A stretch of 64,000 nucleotides of DNA from an uncultured Atopobium sp. (GTDB taxonomy: Bacteria; Actinomycetota; Coriobacteriia; Coriobacteriales; Atopobiaceae), in assembly GCA_963535155.1 (NCBI GenBank), contig CAUSVW010000006.1, positions 3,847 through 67,846 of the forward strand, given 5' to 3'. Shown one piece after another: positions 19,956-33,169 of this stretch. Numbering within the stretch: the first letter of the stretch is position 1; each line of letters begins with the position of its first letter. The position numbers and the translations under genes were made by a program. The notes under the pieces were generated by a model that saw nothing but the letters and a program-made list of their open reading frames with translations, ran no database searches and was not told the origin of the DNA.

Positions 19956-20031
19956 TGGTGCCAGCAACCAGGATCGAACTGATGACCCCCGCTTTACGAG
20001 AGCGGTGCTCTACCAACTGAGCTATGCTGGC
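19956..20031 (-). tRNA. tRNA-Thr(CGT)
   Basis: GCCAGCATAGCTCAGTTGGTAGAGCACCGCT-CTCGTAA-AGCGGGGGTCATCAGTTCGATCCTGGTTGCTGGCACCA; 76 nt, anticodon CGT, encoded CCA. Confidence 0.96.
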
Positions 20032-22989: not shown

Positions 22990-23772
22990 TTATTCTCTAA
23001 ATCCGTCTACGACAACGGTGCCGCTTTTTTGATCCTCATGAATTTTAATAAATCCAAGGCTCGATGCTTCACGTAAAAGAGAAGTAAACGAACGATATCC
23101 ATAAGTTGCCTCAGCAAACTGTGGACGCTTCCTTCGCATAGTCTCCTTTAAACGAGACGCATAAATAAATGTTTCGCTTTCGCGCTCCAAAGACTCAATG
23201 GTCTCAAATAAGAGCTGATAGCAGTCGTGTTTCTCGACAGGTACCTTCTCTTTAAAGTCAGGAATTCTGCCAGAACTCAAAATATCCTCGTAGAAGATAA
23301 ACTCGTCACAAACTTCAGCAAGAAGCGAGCTGGTAGACTCCTTCATACCAACGCCAATGACTGTTTTACCAGCCTCTTTAAGCTTTGCCACGAGTGGCGA
23401 GAAGTCCGAGTCACCAGAGAGAACGGCAAAAGTATCAATGTGGTCTTTAGTAAGACACATCTCAACAGCATCTACCGCAAGTCTAATATCAGCAGAGTTC
23501 TTGCCGGTATAAGCCCTATCTGGAATCTCAATGAGCTCAATGCCAAGCTCATGCAGGGGTGTAATAGCATTTGGAAAGCGCTGCCAATCGCAGTATGCAC
23601 GCTTAGCAGTAATACGACCCTTATCAACAAGCCTCTCCATAATGAGCTTCATCTCTGGAAGATGGCCTGGCTCTTGATGACCGTTGCGCTTTCTTTTACC
23701 TGTTCCTAGTGCCAAATTTTCATAATCGATGAAAACCGCAATAGAGCTCTGAGGAGTAGAAATATCACTCAT
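22990..23772 (-). CDS. NYN-domain (LabA/DUF88) protein with a C-terminal OST-HTH/LOTUS domain
   Basis: AVFIDYEN, KNSADIRLAVDA, SGDSDFSPL, FAEATYGYRSFTSLL. Confidence 0.9.
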   Translation of the reverse strand: MSDISTPQSSIAVFIDYENLALGTGKRKRNGHQEPGHLPEMKLIMERLVDKGRITAKRAYCDWQRFPNAITPLHELGIELIEIPDRAYTGKNSADIRLAVDAVEMCLTKDHIDTFAVLSGDSDFSPLVAKLKEAGKTVIGVGMKESTSSLLAEVCDEFIFYEDILSSGRIPDFKEKVPVEKHDCYQLLFETIESLERESETFIYASRLKETMRRKRPQFAEATYGYRSFTSLLREASSLGFIKIHEDQKSGTVVVDGFRE

Positions 23773-24938: not shown

Positions 24939-25967
24939 TTAATTAGATTTACGAACCCTGTTAGCAATTCGGTCAGAAAGCGAAAGCTTCTCGCGGCGGT
25001 CAGTTCCCCAGAAGACAATAGCCACCATGCCTGGTCCAACGTGAGCACCAATGACTGGTCCTACCTGGCTATGAATAATGGTAAGTCCCTCGCAGCCCTT
25101 CTCTTTACGAATCTGAGCCTCTAGCCAATTAGCGTCCTTCTGTGCGTCTGCAGAAATAATGCCAACAGGAAGCGAGGTGTCATGAGAATAACTATCTCTA
25201 AAGTCCTGGATAAGAGACTTGAGTGCCTTCTTGCGGCCTCTGCACACTGTCTTGACGGTAAGAGCTCCTGTTGAGTCATAGGTAAGCTCTGGCTTTACAT
25301 CAAGTTTGCCGCCAATATTTGCTGCAGCAGCAGGAATACGACCGCCCGCAGCAAGAGCATCCAAGGTCTCAAGTGTTAAGTAGCCATGTATATAGTTACG
25401 CGCATCTGCTGCCCACTCGGCAATCTCTTTTGCCGAGAGACCCTTATTGGCCTGATGTACTGCCTCAAGACCCAAAAGCTGAGCTGCGGACGAAGGTGCA
25501 CCATTGTCGACTACGTAAATCTCAAAGTCTGGGTATTTCTCTCTTACCATATCTGCTGCTTGCTCAGCTGCATAGTAGGATGAAGAAAGTGCAGAGGTAA
25601 AGCAAAGATATACCGTTGGAGTGCTCTGCTTTGCAGCACGCTCAAAGACCTCGAGGTAATGACCAGGAGTAATTGCAGAGGTAGTGTAGCGCAGCTTTTT
25701 GTCTTTGCGCATGCCCTCAAAGAACTCATGTGCACTGATACTCTTCCAGCCGTCATCATAGTGCTCTCCATCTGGTCCCACATAAGGGAACTGGATGATA
25801 TCAACACCTAGCTGTTCAGCAATTCCTGGAGCAAAGTCTGCGCAGGAGTCCATGATGATTCGAACGTTACTGGGCTTATGATATGCAGCTGAAAGCTCAG
25901 TAGGCTCAAGATCTTCAAAGGCAACCTCGCTGATTTCTTCTTCGGCTTTATCTTTTTTATTGAACAT
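24939..25967 (-). CDS. DegV family fatty-acid-binding protein
   Basis: IIMDSCAD, TTSAITPG, SALSSSY, GGRI, HVGPG; start at MFNKK overlapping the end of hpf. Confidence 0.9.
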   Translation of the reverse strand: MFNKKDKAEEEISEVAFEDLEPTELSAAYHKPSNVRIIMDSCADFAPGIAEQLGVDIIQFPYVGPDGEHYDDGWKSISAHEFFEGMRKDKKLRYTTSAITPGHYLEVFERAAKQSTPTVYLCFTSALSSSYYAAEQAADMVREKYPDFEIYVVDNGAPSSAAQLLGLEAVHQANKGLSAKEIAEWAADARNYIHGYLTLETLDALAAGGRIPAAAANIGGKLDVKPELTYDSTGALTVKTVCRGRKKALKSLIQDFRDSYSHDTSLPVGIISADAQKDANWLEAQIRKEKGCEGLTIIHSQVGPVIGAHVGPGMVAIVFWGTDRREKLSLSDRIANRVRKSN

Positions 25968-26547
25968 CTGGTTCCTCAATCTTAGGTTTGATAATTCCAT
26001 AACCACCATTTTTACGATGGTAGATGACATTAGTCAAACCAGTAGAAGAATTAACAAAGACATAAAAATCATGGCCGAGAAGGTCAGTTTGGACAAGCGC
26101 CTCCTCTTCCGTCATGGGCTCAAGATCAATGTATTTCTCGCGAACAAGCTGGTCATCAAGGTCTTCAGCTGGAATCTCAATGAGATTGGCAAGATCTTCT
26201 TGTGTAAGAGCAACTCCGCGCTCAGACTTTACATGATGACGGCGCTCAACAACTTTTGTCTTGTACTTACGCAGCTGTCTGGAAACTTTTTCTGCTGCTT
26301 CATCAATAGCCACATACATATCGTCAGAGCTAGCAGTGACACGAACAACATTGTTACGAACAAATACCGTAACCTCAGCTGTCTTTCTATCTGGATTTGA
26401 AGGGTTTTTGTCTACTCTAAGAACTACATCGCAAGACATAGGAGTGATGTCAAATACTTTAAGAGCATCACCGATTTTCTGATCTACGTGTGTGTGCAAA
26501 GCCTCAGAAATGCTTACCTTGCGTCCCGAAATCTTGATGTCCACCAT
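25957..26547 (-). CDS. raiA: Ribosome hibernation promoting factor (long HPF/RaiA)
   Basis: DMYVAIDEAAEKVSRQLRKYKTK; C-terminal PMTEEEAL..LLGHDFYVF. Confidence 0.95.
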   Translation of the reverse strand: MVDIKISGRKVSISEALHTHVDQKIGDALKVFDITPMSCDVVLRVDKNPSNPDRKTAEVTVFVRNNVVRVTASSDDMYVAIDEAAEKVSRQLRKYKTKVVERRHHVKSERGVALTQEDLANLIEIPAEDLDDQLVREKYIDLEPMTEEEALVQTDLLGHDFYVFVNSSTGLTNVIYHRKNGGYGIIKPKIEEPDVQ

Positions 26548-26684
26548 GGGAGCCTCCTATCGGATACACGAGACATCTTCTAACTGATGTCTGTATAACA
26601 ACAATACCCATTTGTCGGTCAATCATTCCATAAAAAGTTGAATTGAGCGGTAAACGGTTAGAGACTATTTCTCTTTATGTGCGA

Positions 26685-27620
26685 TTAATTTTGCTCAGAG
26701 GAAGATGTAGCTGAATCAGCGCTGGTAGATTGCGTAGAAACTTCCACAAGACCGGAAATCTTATTGGTAGTTGAGAGGTGTGGCAAGGTGCCAATCCACT
26801 TGTTTCTAATAACTCCCTCGACACCGTTAGATTGAATAGCTGAAAGAGCTTGCTGAATTTGTGTAGCGAGAGCTTTGTTACTGGTTGCTACAGAAATACC
26901 AATCGTGGATGGAACGTCAACTACACCAACCATAGAAATATCTTTGTTTGCTGCTAAATAAGCACCAGCATATGCATCACAGGCCACATAATCGATGGAA
27001 CCATTTTCAAGTGCTTCAAAAGCATCATTTAGGTTAGAAAAACTCTGAACAGACATGCCCGTGAGTACCTGACCCATTGCGCGCTCAGACAAAGAACCCG
27101 TTTGAACGCCAACTGACTTTCCACTCAAACTATCAGCAGTAATGTCTGTCTCTGAACCCTTATGGAAAAGAGCAGTTGCAGACTCAGCATAACCAGAAAT
27201 GAGCGTACTTGTTGAGTCTTCACCACTTCTGACATCCATGACAATGTCACAGCCTGCTTGTAGGCCATCTACTGGTCCATTAACTGATACAAACTTAACG
27301 TCTACGCCTAACTGATCTGCAATTGCAGAAGCTATTTCAACGTCAATTCCCTGCAATGTCCCAGCTTCTGAGGCCACAACCATTGGAGCTGTTACTGACT
27401 GAGTACGTAGACCAACGGTCAAAGTGCCAGCTGTGTGCAGTGAGGAATCAGGAATCTTCTGCTGACGGGCTTCTCGCTTCTCTTGGATTGCCTCTTGCAC
27501 TGACTTGACGTGGAACCATTTATCCAGATCAATGTTTATAGGACCAATGGAACATCCTGTTAAAACAACAGCAAGTGCTATAAGAAGTAACACCTTAAGA
27601 GAGTTTTTACCGCGCATCAT
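26685..27620 (-). CDS. Polar amino-acid-type ABC substrate-binding lipoprotein (family 3)
   Basis: Lipobox LTGC, GTLTVG, GIDVEIASAIADQLG, LSGKSVGVQTGS. Confidence 0.85.
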   Translation of the reverse strand: MMRGKNSLKVLLLIALAVVLTGCSIGPINIDLDKWFHVKSVQEAIQEKREARQQKIPDSSLHTAGTLTVGLRTQSVTAPMVVASEAGTLQGIDVEIASAIADQLGVDVKFVSVNGPVDGLQAGCDIVMDVRSGEDSTSTLISGYAESATALFHKGSETDITADSLSGKSVGVQTGSLSERAMGQVLTGMSVQSFSNLNDAFEALENGSIDYVACDAYAGAYLAANKDISMVGVVDVPSTIGISVATSNKALATQIQQALSAIQSNGVEGVIRNKWIGTLPHLSTTNKISGLVEVSTQSTSADSATSSSEQN

Positions 27621-27644
27621 CAGAACTCCTTCTTCTATTCAGGT

Positions 27645-27901
27645 GTCTTTTCAGCTGACCTGGTATTTGACCCCACACTCGCATACTGGAACGTTTGCTT
27701 TGCTACCGCAGCAGCTCCACTAGTAGTTCTCTCGCCTGCGAGACCCTTTGTCTCTTTGATATAACAGGCGGTATGGCTTACTTCTAGGACGAGCCATGAT
27801 CGTTTACGTGCGCACACGCAAACTTACGTGGATCCCTTTGACCTCGTCTGTCATGGACTAAAAGCTCACAGAGAACTTCGCAACCACAGACCTGAAAAGA
27901 C
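27645..27901 (-). ncRNA. raiA-motif RNA (large structured ncRNA)
   Basis: Conserved blocks GGUCUGUGGUUG, GAUCCACGUAAG, UAGAAGUAAG, GGCGAGAG, UUCCAG..GCGAGUGUGGGGUCAAAUACCAGGUCA; closing stem GUCUUUUCAG/CUGAAAAGAC; TATACT -10 at 27913-27908; comF / SBP / raiA context. Confidence 0.9.
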
Positions 27902-27935
27902 TCATCAAGTATAGCCGTTTGCAACCATAGGTAAC

Positions 27936-28685
27936 TCACCATACGCGAGCTAATGCGCCTACGGTTACAGAATGCACGCCTGCGGCACAAAGTACTCTAG
28001 TGGCTTCTCTAATTGATGCTCCCGTAGTTACAACATCATCTAAAAGTAGAATATTTGATTGATTAACCGGCACAGTACAAGCAATACTTCCTTTCAAATT
28101 TATGTGCCTTTGAGCGGATGAAAGTGTTCTTTGGTCCTTTGCATGAGGACGTATAAGCACGTCATACAAAGGTAAACCTGTAAGCTGGCAGAACGATTGG
28201 GCTACAAGTTCCATATGATCAAAGCCTCTGCGCGCGTACGCTTCTGCAGTTGCTGGAATAAAGGAAACGCCATCAATTTTTAAACTATCAAAGCGAGAGG
28301 CACCGTCACGAGCTTTCCATGCTGAGGCTTCTTCAAGCGCACACAATATAGCTGCAGCAATTACCGGCGCCAGTCGAAGCTCGTGTCCATCCTTAAGCGT
28401 CAAGATCAACCGTGCAGGAGGACCCTTAAATCCCATGGCACAAATGACCGCTCTACTCTCCCACTGAACAGGTCGTTTCTTTTTGTCCGCACACTCTGAA
28501 CAAACAAGCTTCCCATATGGAGCGCCGCAATTAGGACATGCCCACTGCTGAGAAATCCATGGCAGCTTTGCCCGACATTCATCGCAGAGGAGCTGACCGG
28601 GTTTCTCGCACACAACGCAGCGCGTAGGAGCAAGCAGCTCAAGTGTTGAGTTTGCCGTTGCAGTAAGGATAGATGTAGGTTGCAT
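27936..28685 (-). CDS. comF: ComF family protein (double zinc ribbon plus phosphoribosyltransferase domain)
   Basis: CxxC pairs, RRGFDH, ILLLDDVVTTGASI. Confidence 0.9.
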   Translation of the reverse strand: MQPTSILTATANSTLELLAPTRCVVCEKPGQLLCDECRAKLPWISQQWACPNCGAPYGKLVCSECADKKKRPVQWESRAVICAMGFKGPPARLILTLKDGHELRLAPVIAAAILCALEEASAWKARDGASRFDSLKIDGVSFIPATAEAYARRGFDHMELVAQSFCQLTGLPLYDVLIRPHAKDQRTLSSAQRHINLKGSIACTVPVNQSNILLLDDVVTTGASIREATRVLCAAGVHSVTVGALARVW

Positions 28686-28778
28686 TTTTACCCCCAAAAT
28701 CTGGGGGCTGACAGTGAATACAGTCTAGGTCAAAGATCGCAAAATGAAAGGTATTTTAGGTAAACGGAAAAAGATGGC

Positions 28779-29540
28779 TTATCTAAAGCTCCTACCAGTA
28801 AGATTGTATTTTGTGAGGATTCGGCTAACGGATGTTTGCCATGGAAGCCATAACAAAATCAAGAAAACAAGCGTTGCTACGCCGTGCGTTAGATCAAGCG
28901 GAATTGAAGCCGCAAACGCGAGAAGAGCGGATTCAAGCGTTAAGGGATGTACAAATCCAATAACAAAGTACACGTTCATTACAAGACCAAAGAATGGTCC
29001 AGAGATAAACGCCCAGATCATAAGCAAGAAAGGTGGAAGCTTGTGGGGTTTCTCGCCTTGTTGGACGGATGTGCGTTTAGAAGATGCAGGGCGAGCTGAG
29101 GTAAAAGTTGCAAGAAGGCCTCCCAGATAACCAACAAGCCCCCACGCATACATCTGCCATGGCGTCCACGAGCCCTGGCCAAAGAAAACGTTTGAAAGAA
29201 GCGCAGATAAGGCACCTACTAAAAAGCCCGCATGTCTGCCAAGAAACGCTCCCGCGAAGATAGCAACTGCGGAAACAGGCTTTACATATGCGAGAGGTGC
29301 AAAGGCAATTCTTCCCGCAGCCCCCAATGCGCTAAAGACGGCAGTAGGTACCAAATTGGCAACTGAGGGCTTCTTTGCCTCAAAACTTAACATAAATAAT
29401 GCAACTGAAATGATTGCTAAAATAATTGAAGATACCGCGGTAAAATCGGGAAAATATATCATTTCAACAGCAAGAATAATAGGTGTAGCAAAGAGTGCCA
29501 CAACCTCTAAGACTATTGATAACGTGTGCCGATTATCCAC
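28779..29540 (-). CDS. ECF transporter S component (CbrT-like)
   Basis: GRIAFAPL..VKPV, FGQGSWTPWQMYAWG, DLTHG. Confidence 0.85.
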   Translation of the reverse strand: MDNRHTLSIVLEVVALFATPIILAVEMIYFPDFTAVSSIILAIISVALFMLSFEAKKPSVANLVPTAVFSALGAAGRIAFAPLAYVKPVSAVAIFAGAFLGRHAGFLVGALSALLSNVFFGQGSWTPWQMYAWGLVGYLGGLLATFTSARPASSKRTSVQQGEKPHKLPPFLLMIWAFISGPFFGLVMNVYFVIGFVHPLTLESALLAFAASIPLDLTHGVATLVFLILLWLPWQTSVSRILTKYNLTGRSFR

Positions 29541-29633
29541 AAGAACCTCACGCTTACCGTCAAAATAAAAATATCAAGAAGGTCTGTCTTATTTTGGCAT
29601 AAGATGAATTGAAACTACAACAAGGAGGTCTTC

Positions 29634-30095
29634 ATGATCTATCTGGGAAACTTTAGCTACAACGACGAGCTTGATGCTACTGACAACTACTGTCTTATGC
29701 CTTGTATTGTTGAGGCAGATTCCACAGATCATGCACTTGAGCTTTTCTCAGAGCACCTTATTGAGGTTGCAAAATCATCTGACCTGCTTGACGGCGCAAA
29801 AGAGATTTTCTTGGATTCCATTGTTGAGCTGGGAGAAGTTCCTACCACTCCTCTGATTGCTCAGTGGCAAAAAATTATGCCTGCAGGAGTTGGCCTCTGT
29901 AGCATTACCAGCGCTCTTCCAACACTTGAGTTTGATGATGAGACGGCCAATGCCTATGGCTTCAATGAGCATACTCACAATCATGAGGAAGATGAAGAGG
30001 AGTATGAACACGAGGAGTTTGGCGACATCAACGATCTTGACGATGAGCTTCTTGAGGAGCTTGGTCAGGATGAGGAGCCGTTCTTAAGGTTCTAG
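29634..30095 (+). CDS. Acidic hypothetical protein
   Basis: Strong AAGGAGG RBS, coding-like composition, Glu/Asp/His-rich C-terminus. Confidence 0.7.
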   Translation: MIYLGNFSYNDELDATDNYCLMPCIVEADSTDHALELFSEHLIEVAKSSDLLDGAKEIFLDSIVELGEVPTTPLIAQWQKIMPAGVGLCSITSALPTLEFDDETANAYGFNEHTHNHEEDEEEYEHEEFGDINDLDDELLEELGQDEEPFLRF

Positions 30096-30099
30096 CCAC

Positions 30100-31584
30100 C
30101 TACTCTGCCGACCACACCCAAGAGTTTTCAAAGAACTCTGAAGTTGGCTCTGTCAGAGAAATCTGACCATCAAAAACTAGAGAAACGTTATCAGCAACGC
30201 GCGATATCAACTGCATGTCGTGCGTTGCTATTACTATGGTTGCACCTTCTGACTGTGCGCGAGAAAGCAAATTGACAACCGCATCTTTGGTTGGGGCATC
30301 CAAGCCCTTTGTTGGCTCGTCAAGAATAAGCAGTCGCGCTTTTGTAAGCAGCACTTTTACGAGGGCTAAGAGTTGCTGCTGTCCACCAGATAAATCGTAT
30401 GGATGAGAAGACATAAGCTTCTGATATGTTGTGCGAGCAAGAAGTCCCGAAGCTTCCAGAAGCTCCTGAACATCCTGATCAGAATAGGCGCCACTCTGCT
30501 GCCACTGAGCAAGCTCCTCGCCCACACTTTGGCAGGTAAAGAGCAGCTCAGGATTTTGTGGAATGTATCCTTGGGATTGCTGGAGCTGGTTGTAGATATG
30601 TCCGCGCCTTGGGCGGAGAACGCCCGCTGCAAGCTTTAGCAGTGTGGACTTACCTGAGCCATTGCCGCCTACAAGCGCACGAATTTCTCGCCCCGTGACC
30701 TCAAGCGAGCACTTGCTGAGCACCAGCTGCTCACTCTGTGGATACGCAAACGTCACGGCGCTGAACTCGAGCACGGGAGTGTTGTCGGCCACGGCGGATG
30801 CTTGGTTTGGCGCGGAGCTGCGAGGACAAAGCGCCTGGCGAGAAGAGCTGTCTGCTTGGAGCGCATCGGGTTTCTCGCCACCAAGGCAGACGCGCGCGTC
30901 AGCAAGGTACTCGAACGCGGCAACGTCGTGGGTGGCAACAAGCACGGCAACGTTGAGCTCGCGCGCCACTCGCTCCAGGAGCGCGGTGAAACTCTTCTGC
31001 GCAAACGGGTCCAGCTGCGAGGTTGGCTCATCCAGCAAAAGCAGCTTTGGGCGCATGACAAGCGCTGCAGCAAGGGCCACTAGCTGCTGTTCTCCCCCGG
31101 AAAGTTCGTTGCAGCGCTTGTGCAAAAGCGATTCCATGCCAAAGAAACTGACCGTCTCAAAAATACGACGGCGCATTTCTTTCTCTGAAACGCCTCGATT
31201 TTCCAGGCCAAAAGCCAGCTCTTTCAAAGGTGTCTCACACACAAGTGCTTGTGAAGTGGCTTGCGGCACAAATGCAATGGTGTCTACGGATTGCGCCTGC
31301 GTCATCGTAGAAACCTCTTGGCCGCAAACAAAAATGGAGCCCTCTCGCCTACCTTGAGGTGCAATCTCGGGCTTAATGAGGCTCAAAATGGTGGACTTGC
31401 CTGAACCAGTTGGTCCCAGTAAAAGACTAATCTGACCAGCACAAACCTCACAGGAAAAATCTTCTACAACGTTGCGGTCTAAAGTTAGAGCATACGCAAA
31501 CGAGAGATTCTGAATAGCAAGAACTACTTCTTTACTAGCTGAAGTAGTAAGTGAATTCTGAATATAGGAAGAATGCTCACTCAT
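30100..31584 (-). CDS. ECF transporter fused double ATPase (A-A')
   Basis: Two Walker A motifs (GPTGSGKS, GGNGSGKS), two LSGG and two LDEPT; ATGA overlap with the T component. Confidence 0.92.
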   Translation of the reverse strand: MSEHSSYIQNSLTTSASKEVVLAIQNLSFAYALTLDRNVVEDFSCEVCAGQISLLLGPTGSGKSTILSLIKPEIAPQGRREGSIFVCGQEVSTMTQAQSVDTIAFVPQATSQALVCETPLKELAFGLENRGVSEKEMRRRIFETVSFFGMESLLHKRCNELSGGEQQLVALAAALVMRPKLLLLDEPTSQLDPFAQKSFTALLERVARELNVAVLVATHDVAAFEYLADARVCLGGEKPDALQADSSSRQALCPRSSAPNQASAVADNTPVLEFSAVTFAYPQSEQLVLSKCSLEVTGREIRALVGGNGSGKSTLLKLAAGVLRPRRGHIYNQLQQSQGYIPQNPELLFTCQSVGEELAQWQQSGAYSDQDVQELLEASGLLARTTYQKLMSSHPYDLSGGQQQLLALVKVLLTKARLLILDEPTKGLDAPTKDAVVNLLSRAQSEGATIVIATHDMQLISRVADNVSLVFDGQISLTEPTSEFFENSWVWSAE

Positions 31585-32513
31585 ACAGACTGCTCCCATA
31601 AGACAGTATCAATACGCACAAAAATTGCTGGTAAAACGGTAAACAGCACTACGCCCAGATACCAAAAGCTCACTTGGAACTCTGGCATAGTAGGATAAAA
31701 CTGCCAGGCTTGTACCAGCATATACAAAGAAACCGCAGCTATAACGCTTAAGAAAGTAAATACCAGCAACGCCACAGTATCATAGGCGTCAAGCACTTCA
31801 GCGCTCCATCTACTCCTGTGCCCTGCCATCCCCCAACCTCGAGACACGATAGACTGAAACGTACTCATCGACTTCTCCAGCGCGCTCATGCACACTGCGT
31901 TAATGGTGGCAGCTGATTGCACAATAGTTTTTCTCGCGCTCAAAAGACGGCTTTGACTTGGAACACGGCTTTGCTGATGTGACTGCACAGCAGAATCACA
32001 CCTTCTAGCTGCGGTATTTGCTGACTGAATTTGACGGGCTGTTGTCAGATCAGAAAGTAGTTGTGGCATAAGCTGCACAGAAAGACTCAAGACCAGCTGC
32101 AATCCCGGAAAGCGCACGCTTGATCGCTGCAACATCTCGAGCGGCGATACTACTGCAAATAGGCACTCAAGCCAGCTCAAAGTACTTACGAGCACAAGAC
32201 CCGAGGTAGCCCCGTACACCAGACTTTCTGCGTACAGCTGTGTGTGTCCAAAAGAATACAAAACGGTAGAGCCAGATGCCGAGAAAAACGGATTGATTAT
32301 CGCCATCAATATAATAATTGGAGCATACCAAACAAGCTGTTTAGCAGCATGTTTGGTGCCAAACAACTGGATTGTACAAAGCTGCGCCCCTAGAAAAGCA
32401 ATCAGCGCACAGAGAGGTTGAAAAGAAAATGCGGCAAGCACAACCTCGCATCCAAACAGCACAACCGTAGCAAGTGGATGAAGACGAGAAAAGCTTGTGC
32501 GCGCGGGATTCAT
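31581..32513 (-). CDS. ECF transporter T component
   Basis: LHPLA, INPFFS, ESLVYG and SRG coupling motif. Confidence 0.85.
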   Translation of the reverse strand: MNPARTSFSRLHPLATVVLFGCEVVLAAFSFQPLCALIAFLGAQLCTIQLFGTKHAAKQLVWYAPIIILMAIINPFFSASGSTVLYSFGHTQLYAESLVYGATSGLVLVSTLSWLECLFAVVSPLEMLQRSSVRFPGLQLVLSLSVQLMPQLLSDLTTARQIQSANTAARRCDSAVQSHQQSRVPSQSRLLSARKTIVQSAATINAVCMSALEKSMSTFQSIVSRGWGMAGHRSRWSAEVLDAYDTVALLVFTFLSVIAAVSLYMLVQAWQFYPTMPEFQVSFWYLGVVLFTVLPAIFVRIDTVLWEQSV

Positions 32514-33169
32514 TAGTTCACCGCGTTAACGTACGTCCAAACAACCGAATCGCCATCATGCAGAACATATGCATCTGACGTGTAGTTAGGCTGAACACCG
32601 TTAACTGAATATACCCAACCGCTCTGTGGACCATGGTCACGCTCTGCAAGCCCATTAATAGCCGCAACGTACATACCAAACGACGTGCTACGTGCATTTA
32701 CCCCGGCTCCACTTGCAAGCAACGCGTCATAGACTGACGTACCCTCTTGCACCTTGAGGTTGACAGTAAATGAAGACCCTTTGGCTGCAGAGCCGTCAAC
32801 CGTAACACTTACAGAAAGCGCACTATTCTCTTTATGAGGAGCAGCTACAGCGTTTGTTGAGTTACCAGAGTTAGAAGGCTCCGACGTTTTCTGATTAGAA
32901 GAATCCTGCGTTTTAGACGCATCAGCATTTGATTGAGCGTCTGAACTAGAGCTCCCTTGCGTCTGTGACGTCTGAGAGTCTGTTTGTGTGCCAGAAGCAC
33001 CTGCTACCGTCTGACCTTGTGCGGTAGGAGCTTCTTGAGCAGAAGTGCTTGAAGCAGGCGTAAAGAAATACTGAATCAATGTCCATGCAAAGAAAAGCAT
33101 GAACACAAAAGATACTATTGATGCTGCCAAATAGAGAATCCGTTTGGATTCTCTTGTGAGCTTAACCAC
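32513..33169 (-). CDS. Membrane-anchored DUF4430 (transcobalamin-like C-terminal domain) protein
   Basis: GTSVYDAL..YVAAINGLAE...GWVYSVNG..Y.LHDGDSVVWTY after a TM helix and Ser/Thr/Gln linker. Confidence 0.85.
   Translation of the reverse strand: MVKLTRESKRILYLAASIVSFVFMLFFAWTLIQYFFTPASSTSAQEAPTAQGQTVAGASGTQTDSQTSQTQGSSSSDAQSNADASKTQDSSNQKTSEPSNSGNSTNAVAAPHKENSALSVSVTVDGSAAKGSSFTVNLKVQEGTSVYDALLASGAGVNARSTSFGMYVAAINGLAERDHGPQSGWVYSVNGVQPNYTSDAYVLHDGDSVVWTYVNAVN

Follow-up and report, generated by a model that had tools for sequence, protein, structure and literature searches.

Members of the raiA-motif RNA family, which includes ModT of Clostridioides difficile, are most often found downstream of comFC (74%) and upstream of raiA/hpf (66%) (Soares 2024, PMC10861870), and RaiA and periplasmic-binding-protein domains have been described as encoded downstream of these RNAs in both of the phyla concerned (Weinberg 2017, PMC5737381). 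The architecture of the RNA varies within the family. P2 is an optional stem that is present in 42% of its members (Soares 2024; He 2026, PMC12968392), and P7 is variable, with 4 bp in Clostridium acetobutylicum and 14 bp in a 253-nt RNA of Nocardioides that possesses all eight stems (He 2026). A conserved, solvent-exposed linker has been proposed as the site bound by KhpA-KhpB, proteins that bind four raiA RNAs in vitro with an affinity of about 2 micromolar (He 2026), and in C. difficile binding of ModT by KhpB was, according to the account in Lence 2024 (PMC11706538), unseen in earlier global assays. In both C. acetobutylicum and C. difficile, deletion of the RNA affects the transition from growth to stationary phase and the phenotypes are rescued in trans (He 2026; Lence 2024). 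The effect of ModT on sporulation has been linked to c-di-GMP, and the possibility that its orthologs act on c-di-GMP-regulated processes was raised as a question in the same work (Lence 2024).

We have analyzed a stretch of 64,000 nucleotides from a contig of an uncultured Atopobium sp. (CAUSVW010000006.1), referred to below as the window. On its minus strand the window carries a full-length raiA-motif RNA, a reading to which we assign a probability of roughly 0.9. The RNA is a standard member of the known family in a typical context and is not a new kind of element, and this copy leaves the question of the family's biochemical function as it was.

The raiA RNA of the window and its relatives

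An Rfam 15 scan of the whole window returned two matches at the gathering level. One of these is a tRNA gene (19959-20031, minus strand), which scores 67 bits against RF00005. The other is a match to RF03072 (raiA) at 27646-27900 on the minus strand, with a score of 172.3 bits (E 1.3e-43) compared with a gathering score of 101.3 bits for this family. The match covers model positions 1-209 without truncation, and a search of the whole genome gave the same result. The initial annotation of this DNA, made from the letters alone, had identified the element as a raiA-motif RNA and had proposed a covariance-model search with the Rfam family as a check; the score quoted above bears out this identification. 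The sequence blocks on which it relied were likewise all located where they had been placed, on a minus-strand read of 27500-28050. These are the perfect 10-bp stem P1a, formed by GUCUUUUCAG (27901-27892) with CUGAAAAGAC (27654-27645), and the conserved blocks GGUCUGUGGUUG (27892-27881), GAUCCACGUAAG (27834-27823), UAGAAGUAAG (27786-27777) and GCGAGUGUGGGGUCAAAUACCAGGUCA (27682-27656). Within its own genome the RNA is present in a single copy, as judged by an RF03072 search of the 1.34 Mb assembly (57 contigs, 86% complete).

It might be argued that there is no RNA gene at this position, the stem and the blocks having arisen by chance, or that the region instead encodes a small protein. Open reading frames of 60-72 amino acids, identified mechanically, do in fact overlap the raiA region, two of them on the minus strand (27635-27817, 27784-27990) and one on the plus strand (27505-27723). 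Both versions of this argument are opposed by the E value of the RF03072 match and by the compensatory changes in P1 and pseudoknot 1 that are described below. Coding is opposed further by the comparison between genera, in which the segment containing P2 measures between 10 and 33 nt, the length of the P7 segment is likewise variable and P5 contains insertions and deletions. Because these length changes would break any reading frame, the small open reading frames are rejected as coding genes, and we consider the probability that no RNA gene exists here to be vanishingly small.

The conservation of the RNA was explored in 41 genomes, comprising its own, 24 from the same genus and 16 from other genera. 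This set represents 17 genera of the order, with one genome for each genus other than that of the window. Each of the 41 genomes yielded exactly one raiA match. The copies from the same genus are all 255 nt long, and those of the 24 other species are 95.7-100% identical to the copy in the window. Within the genus the RNA has a mean identity of 99.0%. The corresponding values for its flanks are 94.9% (3' part of comF) and 95.0% (the gene of the solute-binding protein, SBP, that follows the RNA). A 51-nt stretch of the RNA is found without change in 45 public contigs, assigned to Atopobium sp., Lancefieldella parvula and Atopobiaceae. The raiA RNA is therefore under strong constraint and lies in a conserved locus, the features of which are collected in Table 1.

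Table 1. Features of the raiA locus, listed in the direction of transcription; coordinates are positions in the window.
Feature	Coordinates	Strand	Remarks
comF-family gene, upstream of the RNA	27936-28697	-	Pfam DZR_2 and Pribosyltran; NCBIfam ComF/GntX matches below cut-offs
-10-like box TATACT	27908-27913	-	6 nt before G27901, where P1 begins and transcription putatively starts
raiA-motif (ModT) RNA	27645-27901	-	RF03072 match; 257 nt including the tenth P1a pair
P2 hairpin GAAGUUC/GAGCUUU	27861-27879	-	19-nt insert relative to the Rfam model; folds as 7 bp
Pseudoknot 1, 5' strand GACGAG, in the apical loop of P3b	27843-27848	-	perfect complement of 27788-27793
Pseudoknot 1, 3' strand CUCGUC	27788-27793	-	pairs with GACGAG
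Conserved single-stranded linker UAGAAGUAAG, from pseudoknot 1 to P6	27777-27786	-	from the alignment and the description in He 2026
P7, two parts: proximal CCUGU/GCAGG, distal GAGAC/GUCUC (27750-27754 with 27740-27744)	27735-27768	-	insert relative to the Rfam model
Spacer with ribosome-binding site AAGGAG (27626-27631)	27621-27644	-	24 nt from the end of P1 to the SBP ATG; kept within the genus
Divergent lipoprotein SBP of family 3 (polar amino-acid type), 311 aa	26685-27620	-	Pfam SBP_bac_3, E 1.1e-12
hpf, long-form ribosome hibernation-promoting factor	25957-26547	-	Pfam Ribosomal_S30AE and Ribosom_S30AE_C; TIGR00741, 78.1 bits (cut-off 40.9)
DegV-family protein (mechanical ORF)	24939-26030	-	Pfam/NCBIfam

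Stems, pseudoknots and linker

The closing stem P1 consists of three parts (P1a, P1b and P1c). It is interrupted by two bulges, GU in the 5' strand (RNA positions 10-11) and GGU in the 3' strand (positions 241-243), which agree with the description in He 2026. The tenth pair of P1a, G27901-C27645, which extends the Rfam match by one base at each end, is kept in 15 of the 17 genera; the low P1a pair counts recorded for two genomes, G037 and G036, are an artefact of an offset of about one base in anchoring. Across the 17 genera, 10 of the 12 pairs of P1a and P1b have changed on both sides. P3a and P3b are bent relative to one another by an asymmetric loop in which AU is opposed by AAAG, as is evident from the arrangement GUCC-AU-GAC[AGACGAG]GUC-AAAG-GGAU. 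The apical loop of P3b contributes the 5' strand of pseudoknot 1, which comprises 6 bp and has its 3' strand in the linker that follows P5. These are paired in 99.1% of cases over the 17 genera, and 4 of the 6 pairs have changed on both sides. For pseudoknot 2, which in the family consists of two Watson-Crick pairs joining the linker after P5 to that between P4 and P1c, the candidates are U105-G221 and G106-C220, which can pair and which were mapped by analogy with the numbering of He 2026. G106 and C220 are invariant in our alignment of 19 sequences, and invariant pairs yield no covariation signal. The linker that follows pseudoknot 1 is of the UUAGA(C/A)GUAA type given in He 2026; here it is represented by CUAGAAGUAAG, which ends at 27777, and its UAG and GUAAG elements are invariant in the alignment. 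The match also spans the P6-P7-P8 domain (model positions 104-173), where posterior probability is high for the conserved elements UAGUG and AGC.AA; membership in this subtype (68%), the definition of which includes an E-loop in P8, was judged from this alignment.

In the Rfam alignment two inserts are apparent, one of 19 nt after GGUUGCG and another of about 28 nt around the apical loop of one stem. They appear as inserts because the Rfam model contains neither P2 nor the distal part of P7. The initial annotation had noticed the corresponding hairpins (AAGUUC with GAGCUU, and GAGAC with GUCUC) and had suggested that they were extra elements carried by this copy, perhaps insertions specific to its lineage. 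The hairpins are indeed present, and they correspond to the optional P2 and the distal P7. They are not special to this copy, and the notion of lineage-specific insertions did not survive the comparison, since most of the 17 genera have both stems, each with a different sequence. When 19 sequences were folded, a P2 hairpin of at least 5 bp was obtained in 16 of the 17 genera, with unrelated sequences; the remaining genus (G026) has a P2 of only 2 bp. A two-part P7, consisting of a short proximal helix, a one-sided loop and a distal hairpin, is predicted in 15 of the 17 genera, and the exceptions are G033, which has a 4-bp P7 only, and G037, in which the segment was mis-cut by the pattern used to extract it.

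The support for this fold was evaluated by counting pairs in P1a, P1b, P1c, P3a, P3b and pseudoknot 1, as these are drawn in the published model, on a MAFFT alignment of 19 sequences from 17 genera. The proportion paired in P1, P3 and pseudoknot 1 was 97.8%, compared with 88.7% in shuffles, and 16 of the 29 pairs have changed on both sides; none of 500 shuffles reached the observed values. Controls in which the structure was slid along the alignment gave 32-48% paired, a comparison that favors the structure because the latter was laid out on the window's own sequence. Minimum free energy folding of 27560-27925 did not recover the known fold and gave a z of -0.68 relative to shuffles. This outcome is expected for a pseudoknotted RNA and is uninformative either way.

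P1a is also asymmetric with respect to its strands. Over the 17 genera, pyrimidines occupy 112 of the 119 positions that make up the first 7 nt of its 5' strand, and covariation in this stem consists almost exclusively of exchanges of U-A for C-G, a bias that is shared by the Rfam consensus. As a consequence the 3' strand stays purine-rich; it is GGAGG-like in several genera and reads GAAAAG here.

Taken together, the alignment and the published descriptions suggest that this copy has the full form of the Actinomycetota type, with stems P1 to P8 and both pseudoknots, the second of which is putative and was mapped by way of the He 2026 numbering.

Neighboring genes, transcription signals and read-through

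The end of comF lies 34 nt before the RNA, and 315 nt separate the comF stop (27936) from the start of the SBP gene (27620). The SBP has a lipobox, LTGC, at the end of its N-terminal signal. All of its NCBIfam matches, which are to binders of polar amino acids, fall below the cut-offs, and among solved structures its best match is 4zv1 (E 3.2e-24). No ABC permease or ATPase gene adjoins the SBP gene in the Pfam annotation of the window. The mechanical DegV reading frame overlaps hpf by 74 nt, and since the DegV domain begins only at residue 56, the true start is probably further downstream. Two genes beyond DegV, on the same strand, a 260-residue protein is encoded (22990-23772, minus strand) in which an NYN nuclease domain is accompanied by a weak match to OST-HTH/LOTUS. 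On the other side, upstream of comF, is a row of genes for an ECF-type transporter (28779-33169, minus strand) that includes an S component, a double ABC ATPase, a 310-residue open reading frame with no Pfam match and a DUF4430 protein.

The context typical of the family is thus found in the window, with comF upstream and with hpf as the second gene downstream, following that of the SBP. The initial annotation had described this same context, including degV, and the Pfam domains agree with it. Its estimates of a gap of about 315 bp between comF and the SBP gene and of a spacer of about 25 nt that is devoid of a terminator proved accurate as well, as did the TATACT sequence that it placed just upstream of the RNA.

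The gene immediately downstream of the RNA, in the same orientation, encodes the SBP in the window's own locus and a homolog of it in 16 of the 16 other genera, as determined by tblastn with the proteins of the window. In the stretches from these other genera comF is upstream in 15 of 16 and degV is present in 3 of 16, while hpf follows the SBP gene in 9 of 16, with one stretch that ended too early to judge. To measure the spacer between the RNA and the SBP gene, we chose as start the first codon with both a ribosome-binding site before it and a lipoprotein signal peptide after it. On this basis the spacer amounts to 24-53 nt in 10 of the 17 genera and to 63-232 nt in the remaining 7, so that tight coupling does not extend to all of them. 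In this order the SBP gene is consequently often too near to the RNA to leave room for a terminator or a separate promoter. The association of the RNA with SBP genes was known in outline. What is added here is that the SBP gene is the constant first neighbor in the Coriobacteriales (17 genera of one order), although the supplements to Weinberg 2017 and Soares 2024 may already list it.

Transcription of the RNA would be driven by a promoter of its own, with TATACT as the -10 box, and would begin close to G27901, where P1 starts; a start at the corresponding base has been mapped in C. difficile (Lence 2024). A two-hexamer scan identified no promoter before the RNA, where the -35 region matches poorly; the scan is blank at this position because a good -35 box is lacking. 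It should be added that the promoter and terminator scan as a whole gave counts near chance, with 3 promoter-like sites where 4.8 are expected and 6 terminator-like sites where 3.3 are expected. The case for a promoter is based instead on the conservation of the -10-like box, since a TAnnnT box is located 10-18 nt upstream of the Rfam match in all 17 genera, mostly with a preceding TG. On these grounds it is probable that the raiA RNA has its own promoter, with a start close to G27901.

On the 3' side, the scan detected nothing resembling a terminator on the minus strand in the interval from the RNA to the SBP gene. Two "terminator-like" sites that it reported on the plus strand, at 27730-27754, are simply the complement of P7 and were discarded. 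In 3 genera the 3' flank has a T-run about 9 nt after P1, which may represent a weak terminator, and most of the others have no T-run. As there is no terminator and the SBP gene follows after only 24 nt, read-through appears likely, and on balance we incline to the view that the polymerase would continue past P1 into the SBP gene, and perhaps through hpf and degV.

An alternative is that the RNA is an independent unit that ends at P1 or just beyond it by a non-canonical route, such as Rho or a stem that has no U-tract. Expression of the SBP gene would then come about through rare read-through or from a weak start within the 3' part of the RNA gene, and the short spacer would merely reflect compaction in a genome of about 1.5 Mb. 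There is precedent for such an arrangement. For the C. difficile RNA a start of its own and two 3' ends have been mapped (Lence 2024), and in C. acetobutylicum a discrete single band is observed and no terminator is predicted (Soares 2024). Compaction is plausible in itself, given assembled genome sizes of only 0.9-1.6 Mb in this genus. Against this alternative, there is no terminator-like site after P1 here, and no obvious -10 box could be discerned by eye in the 3' part of the RNA. The SBP gene also follows the RNA directly at every locus of the 17 genera, including those in genomes of 2-3 Mb, and adjacency that persists even in these larger genomes suggests that the linkage has a basis beyond compaction. 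An independent unit is for these reasons the less favored, though a plausible, explanation. In the available text of the raiA-motif literature we found no transcript mapping of a raiA RNA from the Coriobacteriia; a "raiA-hairpin" motif that appears in a single list of a Streptomyces paper is unrelated to the present question. The Coriobacteriales locus, in which the spacer is often 25-45 nt and contains no terminator, would be a simple system in which to distinguish processing from termination.

If read-through does take place, its extent is a separate matter. The gap between the SBP gene and hpf (26548-26684, minus strand, 137 nt) contains the promoter-like hexamers TTGACC and (G)TTATAC, so that hpf may have its own, regulated start. 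The initial annotation had suggested co-transcription in a dormancy/hibernation unit; the layout on which it drew is real and is conserved across the order, but a single "hibernation unit" transcript that extends through hpf and degV is only a possibility. The same gap contains a GACAUC/GAUGUC hairpin just before the ribosome-binding site of hpf.

Mode of action and comparison with described raiA RNAs

Once the transcript had been cleaved, or its 3' end trimmed to P1, the compact fold closed by P1 would remain as a stable species of about 257 nt. The single band seen in C. acetobutylicum, where a terminator is likewise not predicted, is a precedent for a discrete RNA of this kind. By analogy with the clostridial homologs, the RNA would be abundant and would act in trans, tuning the switch from growth to stationary phase. 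On the strength of this analogy we think it likely that the raiA RNA acts in trans here as it does in Clostridia.

A different possibility is that the RNA is a riboswitch-like leader that acts in cis, with or without a ligand or protein, to control how the SBP(-hpf) message, of which it would be the beginning, is transcribed or translated or how stable it is. The position of the RNA, in what would be a 5' untranslated region at a distance of 24 nt from the ribosome-binding site region of the SBP gene, is in keeping with such a role; this layout is kept across the order, and the downstream RaiA and periplasmic-binding-protein genes recur in two phyla (Weinberg 2017). The Rfam 15 family type for RF03072 is in fact "Cis-reg; riboswitch". 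On the other hand, the distances and orientations of neighboring genes over the whole family do not favor control in cis (Weinberg 2017; Soares 2024), and the in vitro experiments described in Weinberg 2017 furnished no evidence of small-molecule binding. Nor would a cis leader account for the rescue in trans of deletion phenotypes in the clostridial homologs, or for the largely unchanged levels of the flanking mRNAs in the C. acetobutylicum deletion strain (Soares 2024). A conserved alternative pairing was not found, and in the predictions the ribosome-binding site does not form pairs with a conserved part of the RNA. A leader acting in cis is consequently improbable. The label given by Rfam stands in contrast to the conclusion of the experimental papers, which is that these RNAs act in trans (He 2026; Lence 2024).

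One candidate for a switch was considered and set aside. The spacer of the window contains CUGAAUAGA (27629-27642, minus strand), a near copy of the 3' strand of P1, CUGAAAAGA, which might have formed an alternative pairing. Other species of the genus have CUGUUUAGA or CUGUAUAGA instead, and the resemblance is probably due to chance.

A broader reading is also conceivable. In the Coriobacteriales the raiA RNA might be the obligatory 5' part of the message for a conserved orphan lipoprotein that binds amino acids, often together with hpf, so that the RNA, a nutrient sensor and a ribosome hibernation factor make up one module in which the RNA is either released from the message or controls it. 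This proposal is speculative and we give it little credence. If it were true, the conserved job of the RNA would be linked to the sensing of nutrient exhaustion and the shutdown of translation, independently of c-di-GMP and of sporulation.

Returning to action in trans, KhpA and KhpB, both of them KH-domain proteins, may be partners of the RNA, and candidates for both are encoded in the genome from which the window derives. One is a KhpA-like protein of 100 residues whose gene lies between rpsP and rimM. The other, which is KhpB/Jag-EloR-like and 194 residues long, has KH and R3H regions. The latter lacks the Jag_N domain, and a search of the genome returned no match to PF14804.

A route through c-di-GMP appears less promising. 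Forty genomes of the genus, 23 of them with a completeness of at least 90%, were all without a detected GGDEF domain in a search that produced matches in 8 of 14 control genomes. In the order as a whole, 57 of 101 genomes have a GGDEF domain, and seven of the raiA-carrying genomes from other genera are also without one (G027, G030, G032, G034, G036, G037 and G039). Since the RNA has been kept in a genus with no detected GGDEF domain, c-di-GMP is unlikely to be part of the conserved mechanism, and the conserved function of raiA is probably independent of this molecule. This genus (Atopobium/Lancefieldella type) is not known to form spores, and if it forms none the RNA cannot act here by way of sporulation.

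These features may be compared with those of three raiA RNAs that have been described experimentally. The RNA of C. acetobutylicum resembles the present copy in having comFC/comF upstream and in that no intrinsic terminator is predicted (Soares 2024). It differs in its size and architecture, being 204 nt long with no P2 and a P7 of 4 bp (He 2026), and also in its downstream gene, which is gntR rather than an SBP gene followed by hpf; the phenotypes recorded for it concern sporulation and aggregation (Soares 2024). ModT of C. difficile is likewise a member of RF03072 that is closed by P1, and its promoter, of the housekeeping type, lies directly before P1. Unlike the copy in the window, ModT has no P2, and it occurs in two forms, a short one (215 nt) and a long one (260 nt), the latter ending in an intrinsic terminator, whereas here there is no terminator and a gene begins after 24 nt. 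The effect of ModT on sporulation operates via c-di-GMP (Lence 2024), in contrast to the genus studied here, which has no detected GGDEF domain.

The closest resemblance is to Ns-raiA of Nocardioides sp. Iso805N, the structure of which was solved by cryo-EM (He 2026) and with which we compared our copy by description only. According to that description, the present RNA is distinguished by its short P2 (7 bp) and by a two-part P7 with a one-sided loop of 9 nt. In other respects the two are alike. Both have eight stems and pseudoknot 1, pseudoknot 2 being putative in the present copy, they are similar in length (255-257 nt here, 253 nt for Ns-raiA), and each has a long P7, GU and GGU bulges in P1 and a conserved purine-rich linker following pseudoknot 1.
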